Assembly: GCA_043778225.1 (NCBI GenBank)
Contig: JAYWGM010000014.1
Coordinates: 1 to 42,462 of the forward strand
Direction of reading: 5' to 3'
DNA length: 42,462 nucleotides
Source: Deinococcales bacterium
Lineage (GTDB): Bacteria > Deinococcota > Deinococci > Deinococcales > JAAFIG01
This document shows, piece after piece, positions 3,359 through 17,433 of this stretch (within the stretch, counting starts at the first letter, position 1; each line of letters begins with the position of its first letter). The notes beneath the pieces are model-generated. The model was given only the letters and a program-made list of their open reading frames with translations, did not search any database and was not told the DNA's origin. The position numbers and the translations under genes are program-made.

Positions 3359-3979
3359 ATGGCGAGAATTCTCTTAATCGAGGACAATCCAGACCAAGCC
3401 TTTGTGGCAAGTCGTTTTCTTGAACGGGCTGGTTTTGCAGTGGCGCATCAAAGCACGGCTCAATCGGGTCTCGAGAGCGCTGCCTTGGGTGGTTTTGATT
3501 TAATCATGCTCGATTATGGCTTGCCAGATTCCGAAGGCTTAACTACCCTCGAGCAATTAACTCCCTTTGGGATTCCCATTATTTTGGTGACTGGTCGCAA
3601 CGAAGCCGAATTGGCAGTCAAGGCACTGCAAGCTGGAGCAGCCAATTATATCGTCAAAGATAGCCACTATTTAGGAAAGTTACCCGAGATTGCTCAGCAA
3701 ACCTTGGAGCAAATTGCAGCCCGTCCGGTTAGTCTCGAGCCAAAGCGCCTTGCCAGCCAAGCCCAGAGCCTAGAAGAATTTAGGCGCTCGGTGCGTCAGG
3801 CACTTAACCCAATGGTGCAGCATTTTCGAGATCGAATTTTAGAAACCAGTTTTTCGGATGCCGTCGGCGAACTCGAGAACACCTTGGAGAGCGCCGAAGC
3901 AGTTTTAGACGAAGAACTCGAGGCGCTGGATCAATTGCTCTACGAAGAGCTTTCTCGAGCCTTGCAGCCACAGGCTTAA
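3359..3979 (+). CDS. Response regulator (REC domain plus helical C-terminus)
   Basis: ILLIEDN, LIMLDYGLPD, LVTG and GAANYIVK receiver motifs. Confidence 0.85.
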   Translation: MARILLIEDNPDQAFVASRFLERAGFAVAHQSTAQSGLESAALGGFDLIMLDYGLPDSEGLTTLEQLTPFGIPIILVTGRNEAELAVKALQAGAANYIVKDSHYLGKLPEIAQQTLEQIAARPVSLEPKRLASQAQSLEEFRRSVRQALNPMVQHFRDRILETSFSDAVGELENTLESAEAVLDEELEALDQLLYEELSRALQPQA

Positions 3980-14263: not shown

Positions 14264-14731
14264 ATGAGTCTCGAGATTGGTCAGCCCGCCCCAGAATTTA
14301 GCGGCACAGACGACACCGGAAAAGTCATTTCACGAAGTAGTTTGTTGGGGCGTTGGGTGGTGCTTTATTTTTACCCTAAGGACAATACCCCGGGTTGCAG
14401 CATCGAAGCCAATAAGTTCGAGCAGATTTTGCCCGAGCTAAACGCGCTTGGCGCAGAAGTGATTGGGGTTTCTACCGACTCTGGTACTTCCCACGCCAAA
14501 TTTCGAGAAAAATGTGGTTTGAGTTTTCCTTTGTTAGCCGATACCGACAAATCGATTGGTAAGGCATACGGCGTGCTTGGCGGTTTAATGGGCATGATTG
14601 GGATTGCGGCTCGTGAAACTTTTTTAATCGACCCCCAAGGCAATTTGGCACAACACTGGAAAATGGTCAATCCAATGACCCATGCTTTGGAAGTCAAACA
14701 AGCACTCGAGAAATTGATTGAAAAAAATTAA
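14264..14731 (+). CDS. bcp: Peroxiredoxin (Bcp/PrxQ)
   Basis: VLYFYPKDNTPGCSIEA, IGVSTD, FPLLAD. Confidence 0.92.
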   Translation: MSLEIGQPAPEFSGTDDTGKVISRSSLLGRWVVLYFYPKDNTPGCSIEANKFEQILPELNALGAEVIGVSTDSGTSHAKFREKCGLSFPLLADTDKSIGKAYGVLGGLMGMIGIAARETFLIDPQGNLAQHWKMVNPMTHALEVKQALEKLIEKN

Positions 14732-14742
14732 AATAGGCAGAC

Positions 14743-14770
14743 TTGACATTTGAAATCTAGTTGGTATACT
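14743..14770 (+). promoter_or_regulatory. Near-consensus sigma70 promoter of the ncRNA
   Basis: TTGACA (14743-14748), 16-bp spacer, extended TGn-TATACT (14765-14770); no downstream ORF on the + strand. Confidence 0.85.
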
Positions 14771-14775
14771 TTCTA

Positions 14776-14900
14776 CCAGGATGCGGCAGACGCGTAGTCA
14801 TACGCGACATCCCGTTACCCGAAAGGGTCGAGGCTGGTCCGGTAAAGACGATCTGAATACCAAGGTAGCCCTTGGCGAAGCCCCTCAAGGGGGCTTTGTT
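14776..14900 (+). ncRNA. sroH: SroH-like structured small RNA (~120 nt)
   Basis: Own promoter and terminator. Stems GGATG/CATCC, CGCGTA/TACGCG, ACCC-GAAA-GGGT and CCAAGG/CCTTGG. Blocks CCAGGATG.GCAGA, ACATCCCG, GGTC.AGGC, GTCCGGTAA, TCTGAATACCA and TGGCGAA match E. coli SroH as I recall it. Convergent on a yjaZ homologue, as in E. coli. Confidence 0.8.
14878..14900 (+). terminator. Intrinsic terminator of the SroH-like RNA
   Basis: AAGCCCCT-CAA-GGGGGCTT followed by TGTTATTT. Confidence 0.8.
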
Positions 14901-14903
14901 ATT

Positions 14904-15428
14904 TCATGGGTTTGATTTCAATGGCTTACCAAGCAGGGCATTTTTGGCAATTACAAAAAATCCCCTTGGTTTGGTTTTTTCCAAAGATGAAACTCTGTGG
15001 GCAGTTTCGATATGAAGACGCAATTTCTTTTCTTCTCGATAAGCCTTAAAGACGATTTTATAATAAATTTTTCGACCTGATTCATCAAAAATATGTATAA
15101 GTGCCGATTTTTCATAGCCAGCATCAAATGTGTGGCAATTGGGTAAATTATTAATAATTTCAGGCAATTTTGTCGAGTCGTGATAACGCTCAAAATGAAA
15201 TGGTCGCTTATCTCTTGGGGCGCTATACATCAGTTCTTGCCTTTCTAGAAGCGTTAAATCGTCACTATCTTTGGCAAAACAATGAAAACTGTATGTAACA
15301 AAAAACGTGTATGTTTTTCCGTTTTTTGGATCTGTGAATGATAATTTTTTAGCATTGAGGTGCGATAAATCATAATTTCTTCCTCTATAGGAAAAATCGT
15401 GCCATTTTTCAGTTTCGTTGTAGTGCAT
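14904..15428 (-). CDS. yjaZ: YjaZ/HtrC-family protein (function unknown)
   Basis: EKW..F, DLSHL, F.VTYS.HCF.KD, LMY.AP...RPF..ERY, AGY, F.A.RE.KKLRLH..TA and FF.IA.N.L align with E. coli YjaZ as recalled. AT-rich, no CTCGAG. Confidence 0.85.
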   Translation of the reverse strand: MHYNETEKWHDFSYRGRNYDLSHLNAKKLSFTDPKNGKTYTFFVTYSFHCFAKDSDDLTLLERQELMYSAPRDKRPFHFERYHDSTKLPEIINNLPNCHTFDAGYEKSALIHIFDESGRKIYYKIVFKAYREEKKLRLHIETAHRVSSLEKTKPRGFFVIAKNALLGKPLKSNP

Positions 15429-15485
15429 CTATTTTGATTGTATCAATCTTTATCTATAAGAAGCCTCGTTTTACCTTGGTATCCA

Positions 15486-15519
15486 ATAAAAGGAGGACGA
15501 GCGCCTTGGTCTCGTCCTC
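15486..15519 (-). terminator. ddrO terminator
   Basis: GAGGACGAG (15493-15501)/CTCGTCCTC (15511-15519) stem followed by CTTTTATT on the - strand. Confidence 0.7.
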
Positions 15520-15534
15520 GCACTCGTCCTTAAT

Positions 15535-15924
15535 TTACTCGAGGATGCGTTTTAAGTTGCGGTAAATGTCGTACCAGTCTTCTTTGGTTTGTGGACGTTT
15601 GCCACGCAGTTCGATACGGGCAAGGCTCGAGACCCAATCTGGGGTAATTTGACCGCCCAAAACAGGGTCAGCCACCAATTCGGCAAGTCCTTTTGGCAAG
15701 GCTTGGGTGCTGATTTCGCCGTAAAATTCAACTGGGCTTAACAGGTCATGAACCGTGATGTCGTAAGAGGCAGCCAAGGTTTGCAACGTCTCGAGGCTTG
15801 GGTTGGTGCGTCCGCGTTCCAAGTCCGAAAGATATGGGATGCTGATACCAGCAATTTCGCTGACATCTTTGAGGCGTTGACCGCGTTCAGAGCGGAGTTC
15901 GCGCAGGCGTTCGTGGAGTTTCAT
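15535..15924 (-). CDS. ddrO: XRE-family radiation/desiccation response repressor DdrO
   Basis: 129 aa, [15 protein letters not shown]...[17 protein letters not shown]...RIELRGKRP (IrrE/PprI cleavage site EL|RG); GGAGG RBS. Confidence 0.96.
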
Positions 15925-16038
15925 GGGTGTTCCTCCTGTTCTCGAGAGGTGAAGGGTTTGCTCGGGCAGGAGCTTAGAGCGCACCATCTCGAGTTTCGTC
16001 GTCCTTGTAAATTCGTGACGACAATTCTGCTTGTGACG

Positions 16039-16074: not shown

Positions 16075-16087
16075 TATAGGTGTGGAC

Positions 16088-16121
16088 TTGCTGGATTTTA
16101 CAAATTATGCTATACTCGTAA
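16088..16121 (+). promoter_or_regulatory. Divergent promoter with an RDRM operator over the -10
   Basis: TTGCTG-17-TATACT with TGn extension; TTATGCTATACTCGTAA (16105-16121) fits the RDRM consensus. Confidence 0.82.
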
Positions 16122-16147
16122 TTATAAAGACTGTTACGGAGGCTATC

Positions 16148-16513
16148 ATGCGAATACTCGAGACCATAGCAAGAAGTTTAAGAACCCAAGCCATTCACCC
16201 GACCACGGTATACAACGCCTTAGTAGACCTCGAAAACAACGCTGGAATTGGCGCATTATCCGACCTCGAGTATCGCCTTGCTCGTTTGGTTCGTGCCATG
16301 AAAGACCGCAATGACCACTCGACAGGTGTTGCTTTTGCTTGGCTTTGCAGCACCCGCGCCTACCTCGAGCAGCACGGACAAGCCATCCCCTTGCAAGACA
16401 TCAAACCTTTGTTTGCGCCAAAGTCAATCAGCCTACACGAAAAAGTCCTCAGCCTGATTCAAACCAAAATCACTTCGCCAGTCTATTCTATCGCTCGTCA
16501 TCAAGGAGTCTGA
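16148..16513 (+). CDS. Small Deinococcota-type DNA-damage-response protein (possibly DdrR-like)
   Basis: GGAGG RBS; LETIA.S....IHPTTV.N.L...EN...AWL.STRAYL resembles a small Deinococcus family as recalled; directly behind an RDRM. Confidence 0.65.
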   Translation: MRILETIARSLRTQAIHPTTVYNALVDLENNAGIGALSDLEYRLARLVRAMKDRNDHSTGVAFAWLCSTRAYLEQHGQAIPLQDIKPLFAPKSISLHEKVLSLIQTKITSPVYSIARHQGV

Positions 16514-16515
16514 CC

Positions 16516-17433
16516 ATGCCCGACCAAACTTGCGCTCATCTCAGCCCAATCGGTAATTGGTGCCGCTTAAAAAATAATTTTAAGTGTCCAGCCCAAGCTG
16601 GACGTGTCGGTTGCCCATTTCCAAAAATCCCAAGCCTCAATGACCGCGCCGAAGACCGCCGCGAACGGATTGCCAAAGCAGCCTCGCTCGAGACCATCGA
16701 AGTCAGTGCGCCAGTGCTGCAACCAACTGTACTCGAGACTGCCCGAATCCAGCATTTAGAACACGAAATGTTTGAGCGTAAAAATGCCTTTGAACAACTC
16801 ACTGCACTTTTCCCGCCAAGTGCCATCGAATGGCGACTCGAGAGCCGTTCCCGCGACCAACGCCGTGCTTTGGTGCGCCCTGTCTTGAGTGCCAAAACAG
16901 TTTCTGAGCGTCTTGATGCCGTGGTCAGCACCGCCGGCTGGAGTGACCTCTATACTGCCCTACCGGGTTCGCGGGTGGCTTGTCGGCTGACTGTGCTGGG
17001 TGTCACCAAAGAAGCCATCAGCGCTGCCCTTGAGCCAGAACTCGCCTATGCTGATGCCTTGGTGCGGGCGGCGGCAAAATTTGGTCTGGGGCGTGCCCTA
17101 GAGCGGATTGTTGGCACTTGGGTAGACTGGGACGACAATCGCAGCCAGCCGCTCGAGCCACCCGTGTTGCCAGATTGGGCAGTGGCTATTCCAGCCCCAG
17201 CGATGGTGCAAATCGTACCGAGCCAACAAGTTGCCGAAACTCGCACAAACGAAAAACTGATTACCGATTTAATCAGGGCGGTGCGCGAATTGCCGGGTGG
17301 CGAAATCGAATTGCGCCGTCTGATGCGTCGCCGAAACCGTTGGCACGCCAGTACCGACACCGATAAACGGGCGCTTTATGGCGAATTGCGTAAAGCCTAC
17401 CGTCAACTCTCGAGCGGCAGTGTGGCAGCTTAG
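16516..17433 (+). CDS. Rad52/Rad22-family (DdrA-like) protein with a Cys-rich N-terminal extension
   Basis: AAGGAG RBS; LTALFPPSAIEWR, ERLDAV, CRLTVLGVTKE, DALVRAAAKFGLGR, WVDWDD, LPDWA. Confidence 0.85.
   Translation: MPDQTCAHLSPIGNWCRLKNNFKCPAQAGRVGCPFPKIPSLNDRAEDRRERIAKAASLETIEVSAPVLQPTVLETARIQHLEHEMFERKNAFEQLTALFPPSAIEWRLESRSRDQRRALVRPVLSAKTVSERLDAVVSTAGWSDLYTALPGSRVACRLTVLGVTKEAISAALEPELAYADALVRAAAKFGLGRALERIVGTWVDWDDNRSQPLEPPVLPDWAVAIPAPAMVQIVPSQQVAETRTNEKLITDLIRAVRELPGGEIELRRLMRRRNRWHASTDTDKRALYGELRKAYRQLSSGSVAA

Follow-up and report, generated by a model that had tools for sequence, protein, structure and literature searches.

The 42,462-nucleotide (nt) contig JAYWGM010000014.1 of a Deinococcales bacterium (assembly GCA_043778225.1), analyzed over its whole length and called the window below, carries a small cassette in which a gene for a structured RNA of the SroH family and a gene for a protein of the YjaZ family face each other tail to tail. 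The promoter of the RNA gene (14743-14770, + strand) is composed of TTGACA (14743-14748), a 16-nt spacer and TG-n-TATACT, with TATACT at 14765-14770. It matches the consensus at 11 of 12 positions and was the best promoter-like site of the region in a promoter scan, in agreement with an earlier sequence-only reading of this DNA that had described it as near-consensus. Of 68 distinct homologous regions upstream of the RNA, 44 likewise have a promoter with at least 9 of 12 matches at the expected distance, compared to 65 of 1360 shuffles. The RNA (class I; 14778-14903, +) is about 125 nt long, its start being placed from the -10 element, and closes with a terminator hairpin. The same reading had seen about 120 nt with several stems, no open reading frame (ORF) and an intrinsic terminator, all of which held up; its 3-bp gap between the RNA end and the stop codon of the protein gene did not, the actual gap being 0-1 nt with the U-tail running into the stop codon.

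The protein gene (14904-15428, - strand; stop codon 14904-14906) encodes 174 residues with an isoelectric point (pI) of 9.4. It is AT-rich, as had been noted, with a GC content of 0.35 versus about 0.50 on both flanks. The -10 element proposed for it, TACAAT, does occur at 15437-15442 (-), with 8 nt between it and the ATG, yet a -35 partner is missing and the promoter scan did not list it. If TACAAT is used, the protein mRNA would be leaderless or nearly so.

The likeness of the RNA to Escherichia coli SroH that had been claimed was confirmed by the Rfam model RF00372 (sroH), which matched the window at 14752-14897 (+) over the full model (positions 1-161) with 55.2 bits and an E-value of 2.1e-11. 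This is under the gathering threshold of 80 bits. Scores of the same model elsewhere were 197.8 bits in E. coli, 99.3 in plasmid pB1022, 74.5 in Microcoleus, 59 in a Planctomycetota metagenome-assembled genome (MAG) and 40 in a Deinococcales MAG. By these profile matches, the window RNA is an SroH homologue beyond the curated Rfam range. The protein likewise aligns along its length with YjaZ, as had been claimed: NCBIfam NF007263 was matched at E 6.3e-35, with residues 4-170 on model positions 3-174 of 179. Its score of 120.8 bits versus an equivalog cut-off of 324 makes it a family member for which the equivalog level is not reached. Judged by both profiles, the window adds a new member to the SroH and to the YjaZ family. 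RNA and protein both fall short of the curated cut-offs, so that the RNA would escape standard annotation, and the Rfam threshold misses most non-enterobacterial SroH copies.

A class I covariance model was built from 40 downstream regions of YjaZ loci and gave 129.9 bits on the window at 14773-14906. The fold was obtained with RNAalifold, with one helix added by eye. In the 5' hairpin (14779-14812, +), helix P1 (14779-14783/14808-14812) is separated from P1a (14791-14795/14802-14806) by a conserved asymmetric internal loop with CGGCAGA on one strand and A on the other; compensatory changes occur at 3 of 5 pairs in P1 and at all 5 in P1a in the 40-sequence alignment. The central domain (14813-14850, +) is enclosed by P5 (14813-14815/14848-14850), a 3-bp long-range helix with compensatory changes at 3 of 3 pairs, which contains P2 (14817-14820/14825-14828) and the invariant stretch GGUCGAGG...CCGGUAAAG. 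Only one of the four P2 pairs varies, and that pair covaries. The invariant single-stranded UCUGAAUA and hairpin P3 follow (14851-14875, +; P3 at 14860-14865/14870-14875, compensatory changes at 7 of 7 pairs). The last element (14876-14904, +) is the extended terminator P4 (14876-14884/14890-14898), in which CGAAG pairs with CUUUG, and a conserved UUAUUU tail that touches the protein stop codon.

Pairing was retained in 98.6% of the cells of the 40-sequence alignment versus 85.3% in shuffles, 25 of 37 pairs showed changes on both sides, and none of 500 shuffles reached any of these measures. Sliding the helix partners reduced pairing to 32-47%. For a candidate pseudoknot (alignment columns 120-122 with 135-137) covariation was never seen. 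For the window sequence alone, the folding energy is -48.7 kcal/mol (z -2.4). Conserved G-U pairs are valid only on the + strand, which fixes it as the transcribed one. Furthermore, the RNA is non-coding, because the AUG in the conserved GGAUGC opens frames of greatly differing length between loci. A simple terminator scan of the region gave no site, though the hairpin is clear from folding and covariation; Tandem Repeats Finder returned no rows over 14600-15650, and the tRNA/tmRNA scan gave no match. The element is a covarying structured RNA of five helices plus terminator, and more than a terminator alone.

Complementarity or repeats between the RNA and the region around the protein start (230 nt) did not exceed shuffles in 35 other loci. 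In the window alone an 11-nt same-sense match was found (p about 0.015), which we take as chance. A 14-nt inverted repeat, 93% complementary, connects 14854-14867 with 15472-15485; its GAAUACCAAGGUA copy, in the sense of the protein gene, sits about 45 nt upstream of the protein start, and nothing comparable was present in the 35 other loci.

Sequences related to the protein are numerous. A profile search returned 1146 cluster representatives at E ≤ 0.001 (562 at E ≤ 1e-10), and the best 150 of these 1146 are all single-domain proteins of 83-242 residues. Precomputed Pfam assignments place the window protein, all 39 database relatives and 99% of the nearest Atlas cluster in PF27200; in the local Pfam copy no family matched the window protein at E ≤ 1. 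An alignment of 47 sequences confirmed conservation of the motifs singled out in the sequence-only reading (SxHCF, ERY, LH.(E/T)(T/S)A), here as SFHCF, ERY and LRLH..A. Residues Y40, H49, F51, R75, F77, R81, Y123, F127, R137, H139 and A143 are invariant, and pI exceeds 8 in 44 of the 47 relatives. The AlphaFold2 model from this alignment (mean predicted local distance difference test score, pLDDT, 86.7; predicted template-modelling score 0.82) has an alpha/beta fold with an N-terminal beta region, followed by a strand, helices and a four-strand core.

To what extent the two genes occur together was examined from either side. Starting from the protein, a pattern-seeded search with one genome per species yielded 80 YjaZ loci. 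The hosts are mostly cyanobacteria, with Enterobacterales, Methylococcaceae, Psychrobacter, Pseudomonas, Marinomonas, Ferrimonas, Thiomargarita and Woeseiaceae, as well as MAGs labelled Deinococcales, Planctomycetota, Rubrobacter and Rhizobium. The covariance model from the regions downstream of YjaZ homologues found the class I RNA in 77 of these 80 loci, with 86-151 bits. In two of the three loci lacking it the contig breaks off at the gene, and in the third the gene is frameshifted. The RNA accompanies every one of the 67 intact YjaZ genes, and no intact gene without it was found in this set. The RNA also stands beside nine broken or truncated YjaZ genes and one that is interrupted by a contig end, and is missing at one broken gene. 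It is convergent on the gene in 76 of the 77 loci, the exception being L059, where it lies upstream on the same strand. The modelled RNA end falls between -12 and +5 nt from the stop codon in 69 loci, at 6-30 nt in five and at 144 nt in one (L033); in one more there is a 22-nt overlap with the ORF.

Starting from the RNA, an exact core pattern gave 80 readable metagenome loci, all confirmed by the covariance model. They are redundant, with 25 distinct core sequences of which one occurs 38 times. A convergent YjaZ ORF was present in 72, in two pieces in five of them, and one locus (L173) is tandem with the gene downstream of the RNA on the same strand. The remaining seven RNAs lack YjaZ despite room for the gene. 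At least three of these (L125, L129 and L144) retain a remnant of a few bases from the 3' terminus of the gene, and the surroundings of the orphan RNAs contain methyltransferase and toxin-antitoxin-like genes. In viral contigs, eight of 24 pattern matches were true RNAs, six with YjaZ and two without; the other 16 were rejected as chance hits of the short pattern. The two viral RNAs without YjaZ (L102 and L120, both 1452-1595, -) are located at the ends of P2-like prophages, with an Ogr/Delta zinc-finger gene and a portal gene on one side and a YhgA-like transposase gene on the other, and in L120 a few bases resembling the yjaZ 3' end remain.

RNA and protein also diverge together. Pairwise distances over 38 loci, a set that leaves out two loci with truncated proteins, gave a Mantel r of 0.816, and none of 2000 permutations was as high. 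Mean identity was 75% for the RNA versus 51% for the protein. Since related sequences share history, the correlation indicates joint inheritance and not selection. The proposal that the pair travels as one unit is thus borne out by its presence in 77 of 80 loci and at all 67 intact genes, by its plasmid carriage (see below) and by co-divergence: the RNA and protein genes are an autonomous mobile two-gene module, inherited and diverging together.

A second RNA class was found in the window's own genome, where contigs C1 and C101 each add another YjaZ-family gene (29-34% identity). The class I model did not match at these paralogue loci, even with filters off. Instead, both have an element of about 140 nt in the same convergent position with its terminator at the stop codon (C1: L003 1346-1490, +; C101: L239 1283-1437, +). 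This class II RNA has an TGCTATACT promoter, a covarying 5' stem and conserved blocks GGUUUCUAGCC and ACUGGAAUA, and Rfam contains no match to it. A class II model gave 24 matches in 12 of 41 relatives, all within the family-level group of the window's host. Of these, 17 adjoin a YjaZ-family gene, while at the other seven, mostly weaker, no YjaZ ORF was found at E ≤ 1. In this lineage, divergent YjaZ paralogues carry their own divergent RNA class. Some of the YjaZ-free matches sit between HigB/HigA-like and PIN-like genes. A conserved ORF of 73-76 codons (...YTNK.GA.V...GHEH.T.S..VAMRLEEL...) adjoins class II RNAs in two genomes (L003 1082-1303, +; L247 1322-1552, +), upstream on the same strand in one and convergent in the other; it matched no Pfam family.

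The cassette occupies a defined insertion site. Its left neighbor is the bcp-type peroxiredoxin gene (14264-14731, +; Pfam AhpC-TSA, E 3e-36) and its right neighbor a gene for a DdrO-like helix-turn-helix (HTH) regulator of the XRE family (15535-15987, -; Pfam HTH_3 only). In three genomes of the same genus (G003, G004 and G005) the site is empty, with bcp and the regulator gene about 50 nt apart and a terminator hairpin between them, and it is this spacer that the cassette replaces. Aligned with these genomes, the window loses similarity at 14710 and regains it at 15534. The left junction is a CTCGAG at the bcp end (14705-14710), where the likeness to the empty sites stops, and the right junction is a CTCGAG (15538-15543) just inside the 3' end of the DdrO-like gene, where similarity to relatives resumes. 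The 827 nt between them (14711-15537, about 0.8 kb) are AT-rich and free of CTCGAG, which bears out the earlier remark that this stretch differs from its flanks in that respect.

With the site empty in relatives and the RNA not found in any of 150 other genomes sampled from the phylum (searched with stricter filters), the foreign origin suspected in the sequence-only reading is strongly supported. In a fourth genome of the genus (G001) the bcp/regulator junction holds another insert of two genes (L086 2362-3250), encoding a 130-residue weakly Gp49/HigB-like protein and a 122-residue HTH protein. With this other insert in place, the bcp/regulator spacer looks like a hot spot for small toxin-antitoxin-type modules. 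The cassette itself is present elsewhere in G003 and G004 (L095 and L096), with a protein 55% identical to that of the window; these are probably the same two loci as L004 and L005 of the protein-first set and are not independent of them. In L004 the cassette adjoins a Gp49 and HTH pair and an AAA_21 ATPase gene.

The cassette ranges from enterobacteria to cyanobacteria, Deinococcota, Planctomycetota and other groups. YjaZ was found on 562 plasmid records (374 from Klebsiella, 42 Enterobacter, 34 Serratia, 28 Pseudomonas, and others), of which 291 are conjugative, and the RNA was convergent on it in three of three plasmids checked. Several are ColRNAI plasmids of 2462 bp with the cassette as main cargo and no other conserved partner gene. 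In one of these (L097) yjaZ is split into ORFs of 117 and 81 codons next to an intact RNA (123 bits), and in sister plasmids of the same size yjaZ is unbroken. The cassette is also present in 3740 of 5426 complete E. coli genomes (69%). Isolated phage genomes yielded no YjaZ protein and no match to the one RNA query used, an orphan copy from a P2-like prophage contig.

In E. coli, SroH is one of the first small RNAs found (the sro set), and deletion of yjaZ is apparently tolerated. The yjaZ gene lies between rpoC and thiH, and in the E. coli locus L055 it ends at 3534 (+) with sroH (3536-3696, -) directly after its stop codon; the 197.8-bit match on the strand opposite yjaZ confirms the statement of the sequence-only reading that sroH is convergent on yjaZ. 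The E. coli and window loci thus have homologous RNAs (197.8 and 55.2 bits, respectively), homologous proteins (41-43% identity, NCBIfam YjaZ match), the same convergent geometry and accessory islet character, but they belong to different phyla and the insertion site in the window is bcp/DdrO-like gene. Weak full-length class I matches (12-22 bits, E 0.002-0.9) also occur upstream of E. coli and Shigella yjaZ, on the yjaZ strand at the rpoC end (about 2704-2835, +, in L055, L060 and L066; 2644-2800, +, in L078). They could be a decayed second copy or chance. Weak matches of the class I model were also found inside some genes in the scan of the 80 loci.

PMC5389530 gives the function of SroH as unknown, and according to PMC5389530 and PMC13572404 E. 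coli survives the loss of sroH and shows only sensitivity to envelope stress. Published work further reports that SroH is a detected transcript, that full-length and processed forms accumulate, that it is a substrate of PAP I and PNPase, and that it is mildly induced after replication stress. PMC6172242 describes gel-shift tests in which SroH bound kbl mRNA, and PMC11551758 states that the designation htrC, given to yjaZ for its function, was retracted. A full-text literature search, with subscription journals outside its scope, gave no paper that links sroH and yjaZ or follows the family beyond enterobacteria.

The model of the protein was compared with known structures. In an exhaustive VIA-align pass the top rows were almost all of RelE type or BECR, over residues of about 40-150, and included BrnT, RelE, ParE, HigB, YoeB, YafQ, MqsR, CdiA-CT tRNases, colicin D and RegB (Z 4.8-2.5, with 67-92 residues aligned at Z 4.8-3.0). 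The ESM Atlas, with its own model of the protein, pointed to PBECR2, PBECR3, DUF4258, ParE-like and Gp49 clusters, with template-modelling (TM) scores of 0.54-0.71 by target; two rows from this Atlas were counted as one source. The two structure searches agree on the fold class, both weakly, and the protein core likely has a RelE/ParE/BECR nuclease fold.

These observations allow a tentative interpretation. We consider it possible, with a chance somewhat short of even, that YjaZ is an RNA-neutralized RNase and the cassette a type III-like toxin-antitoxin or abortive-infection/defence module of new architecture. The YjaZ protein would be a ribonuclease-type effector of BECR/RelE fold, and the abundant cognate RNA would bind it directly via the conserved loops around P1 and P5 and keep it inactive. 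When the supply of RNA drops, upon loss of the plasmid or islet, transcription shut-off or perhaps phage infection, the more stable protein would be freed and would cleave cellular RNA. The module would then behave as type III toxin-antitoxin or abortive-infection pairs do, but its toxin fold would be another, its genes are convergent, and its RNA is a single unit with a promoter of its own. If the protein mRNA reads through into the antisense of the RNA gene, antisense control may come on top as a second layer.

This toxin-antidote interpretation is favored because losses are one-sided, the RNA outliving the intact gene and never the reverse, and because no other conserved partner gene exists. 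It is further favored by the strong RNA promoter versus the weak protein promoter, by cognate subfamilies occurring in several copies per genome, by plasmid carriage with insertion sites shared with RelE-type pairs, and by the fold neighbors, which are nearly all toxins or nucleases, together with the basic protein (pI 9.4). A toxin/RNA-antitoxin mechanism is plausible and consistent with the distribution pattern.

Several results weigh against it. The RelE/BECR-like RNase proposed from the sequence has the weak structural likeness described above: the VIA-align Z-values of 4.8 at most compare to 7-8 often reached by unrelated models, the Atlas TM scores by query are 0.36-0.45 (below 0.5), and Foldseek returned nothing from the PDB at E ≤ 0.001, with fibrinogen-like domains of TM below 0.2 as top rows. 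Sequence-level support, in the form of a link to any nuclease family, was not obtained. A profile of the 47 sequences gave only chance rows with E near 1 against PDB chain sequences, and hhalign of the family profile with one neighboring Gp49/HigB-like protein gave a probability of 0.1. Neither PADLOC-DB 2.0 (no defence family at E ≤ 1) nor PHROGs matched the protein. In the flanks of 54 representative loci (115 ORFs) housekeeping genes prevail, most chromosomal copies lie outside defence islands, and enrichment for defence genes is unconvincing. On the supporting side, no third gene recurs among these ORFs, and toxin-antitoxin-type neighbors were seen in six of the loci (two PIN proteins; HicB with PemK; a ParE-like protein; YafQ; RES; AAA_21), and a few are flanked by integrase, TnpB, replicase or DNA methyltransferase genes. 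That E. coli tolerates the deletion of sroH speaks against a potent toxin. Toxicity, binding and cleavage by YjaZ are putative, the one-sided losses would also be expected if the RNA had a protein-independent function, and every architectural hallmark of known type III systems is missing, there being no tandem repeats and the genes being convergent and not in one operon.

The main rival is a dedicated non-toxic ribonucleoprotein, in which YjaZ binds, stabilizes or processes the RNA like a private chaperone or maturase, while the complex or the RNA alone acts on other cellular targets, e.g., in envelope-stress physiology. We regard this as unlikely, if far from negligible. Co-inheritance and co-divergence fit it equally well, the higher identity of the RNA (75% versus 51% for the protein) and its long single-stranded blocks without variation are what an RNA with a role of its own typically shows, and orphan RNAs persist without the protein. 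Both single deletions in E. coli are apparently tolerated. The full-length and processed SroH forms, the envelope-stress phenotype of the deletion and the kbl target reported by gel shift (PMC6172242) point in the same direction. On the other hand, a housekeeping-type ribonucleoprotein is not expected to be the main cargo of 2.46-kb plasmids and to appear on 562 plasmid records, nor to form a patchy islet (none of 150 phylum-mates sampled, 69% of E. coli) or to occur in several diverged copies per genome, and the nearest folds are all toxins or nucleases. In a different type of explanation the RNA would only pair in cis with the 3' end of read-through yjaZ mRNA and trigger its decay, as in type I systems. 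This agrees with the conserved convergent geometry, in which 69 of 77 loci have the RNA ending at the stop codon, and with the strong RNA promoter facing a weak or absent protein promoter; moreover, no U-run follows the terminator hairpin on the strand of the protein gene, which makes read-through plausible. Yet pairing requires no conserved fold, whereas the RNA has five covarying helices and long loops that do not vary from phylum to phylum. The tandem variants with the RNA upstream on the same strand (L059 and L173), the 144-nt spacer in L033, complementarity to the 5' region of the gene that is not beyond chance in 36 loci, and a soluble basic protein of 174 residues in place of a small membrane peptide do not fit either. 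A purely antisense role of the RNA is unlikely, and we give this explanation only a small chance.

The roles might also be reversed, with the RNA as a harmful or regulatory effector and the RNase-like protein as the antidote that cleaves it, a situation resembling type V GhoS and RNA-toxin systems. The RNase-like fold and the processed SroH forms described in E. coli would suit such a model. However, the fairly common orphan RNAs (seven of 80 and two of eight loci) and the nine RNAs beside broken genes are the opposite of what a toxic RNA predicts, and the RNA owns the strongest promoter in the region, so that we find the reversal very improbable. Lowest of all we rate the case of no functional link, in which the element would be a cassette terminator or a DNA-level recombination site carried along by chance. 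Its position at the cassette edge near the junction and a last helix that is a terminator are what one would expect of such a site; a conserved strong promoter of its own at a fixed distance, G-U pairs that hold on the transcribed strand alone, a conserved structure extending for about 90 nt ahead of the terminator, co-divergence with the protein, a second cognate RNA class, and the SroH transcript reported from E. coli are not.

Comparison with described systems illustrates what would be new about an RNA-neutralized YjaZ. Type III systems (ToxIN, CptIN and TenpIN) combine a protein of nuclease-like fold with a dedicated non-coding RNA, have no protein antidote and are carried on plasmids; the RNA is produced in excess from a strong promoter, RNA and protein form cognate subfamilies, and the RNA, which binds and inhibits the endoribonuclease toxin, is a short-repeat array upstream in one operon, with a terminator between it and the toxin gene. 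SroH/YjaZ shares the plasmid carriage, the dedicated RNA without protein antidote and the cognate subfamilies, along with a predicted nuclease-like fold and a predicted strong RNA promoter. In contrast, its RNA is a single 125-nt multi-helix unit instead of a short-repeat array and is transcribed convergently from its own promoter, not upstream in the toxin operon. The YjaZ core weakly resembles RelE/BECR proteins and not the ToxN/AbiQ fold.

The RelE/ParE and BECR toxins (BrnT, HigB, YoeB, CdiA-CT tRNases, colicin D, PBECR) are the best structural neighbors of the core (residues of about 40-150) and resemble YjaZ in small size, basic charge and mobile gene context, and RelE-like pairs neighbor the cassette or occupy the same insertion site. 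YjaZ differs by the lack of sequence similarity, an extra N-terminal beta-strand region of about 40 residues, and the absence of a conserved adjacent gene for a protein antitoxin or immunity protein in the 54 loci. Bacillus subtilis txpA/RatA and bsrG/SR4 are convergent, 3'-overlapping type I systems with a strongly expressed RNA and a small hydrophobic peptide toxin. The tail-to-tail arrangement of RNA gene and protein gene is common to these and SroH/YjaZ, but YjaZ is a 174-residue protein with an alpha/beta fold (pLDDT 86.7) and a pI of 9.4, SroH has a conserved, covarying architecture of tertiary type, and transcript overlap in SroH/YjaZ is only putative.

With the balance still somewhat on the negative side, we tentatively propose that SroH/YjaZ is the founding member of a new RNA-antidote class of toxin-antitoxin or defence systems. 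It would unite a BECR/RelE-fold ribonuclease with a single, independently transcribed multi-helix RNA, spread by plasmids over at least five phyla with at least two cognate RNA classes, the 3-bp long-range helix and the invariant loops being the likely recognition surface. If so, SroH of E. coli would be an antitoxin and not a base-pairing regulator, RNA-antitoxin systems would come to include a toxin fold and a gene architecture that are new to them, and there would be an explanation for a cargo that is widespread on plasmids of Klebsiella, Serratia and Enterobacter. If the RNase and RNA-antidote roles fail, what remains is a new bacterial ribonucleoprotein with an RNA more conserved than its protein. 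In either case two old E. coli orphans, SroH and YjaZ/HtrC, become one testable joint hypothesis, because they form a conserved, co-diverging, plasmid-borne unit with a defined RNA fold and a second RNA class, the latter absent from Rfam.

The CTCGAG motif that borders the cassette is abundant throughout the window, with 288 matches versus 6.9 expected from shuffles, both strands of the palindrome being counted. It occurs within genes and at gene ends alike (e.g., at 85-90 and 354-359), and marks both junctions of the cassette as well as both ends of the spacer that the cassette replaces in comparison with relatives. Beyond the DdrO-like gene, an ORF of 143 codons without family assignment (16082-16513, +) overlaps one of 364 codons (16339-17433, +). 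The product of the latter has a weak match to Rad52/Rad22 (E 0.014, below the cut-off) and is possibly DdrA-like.

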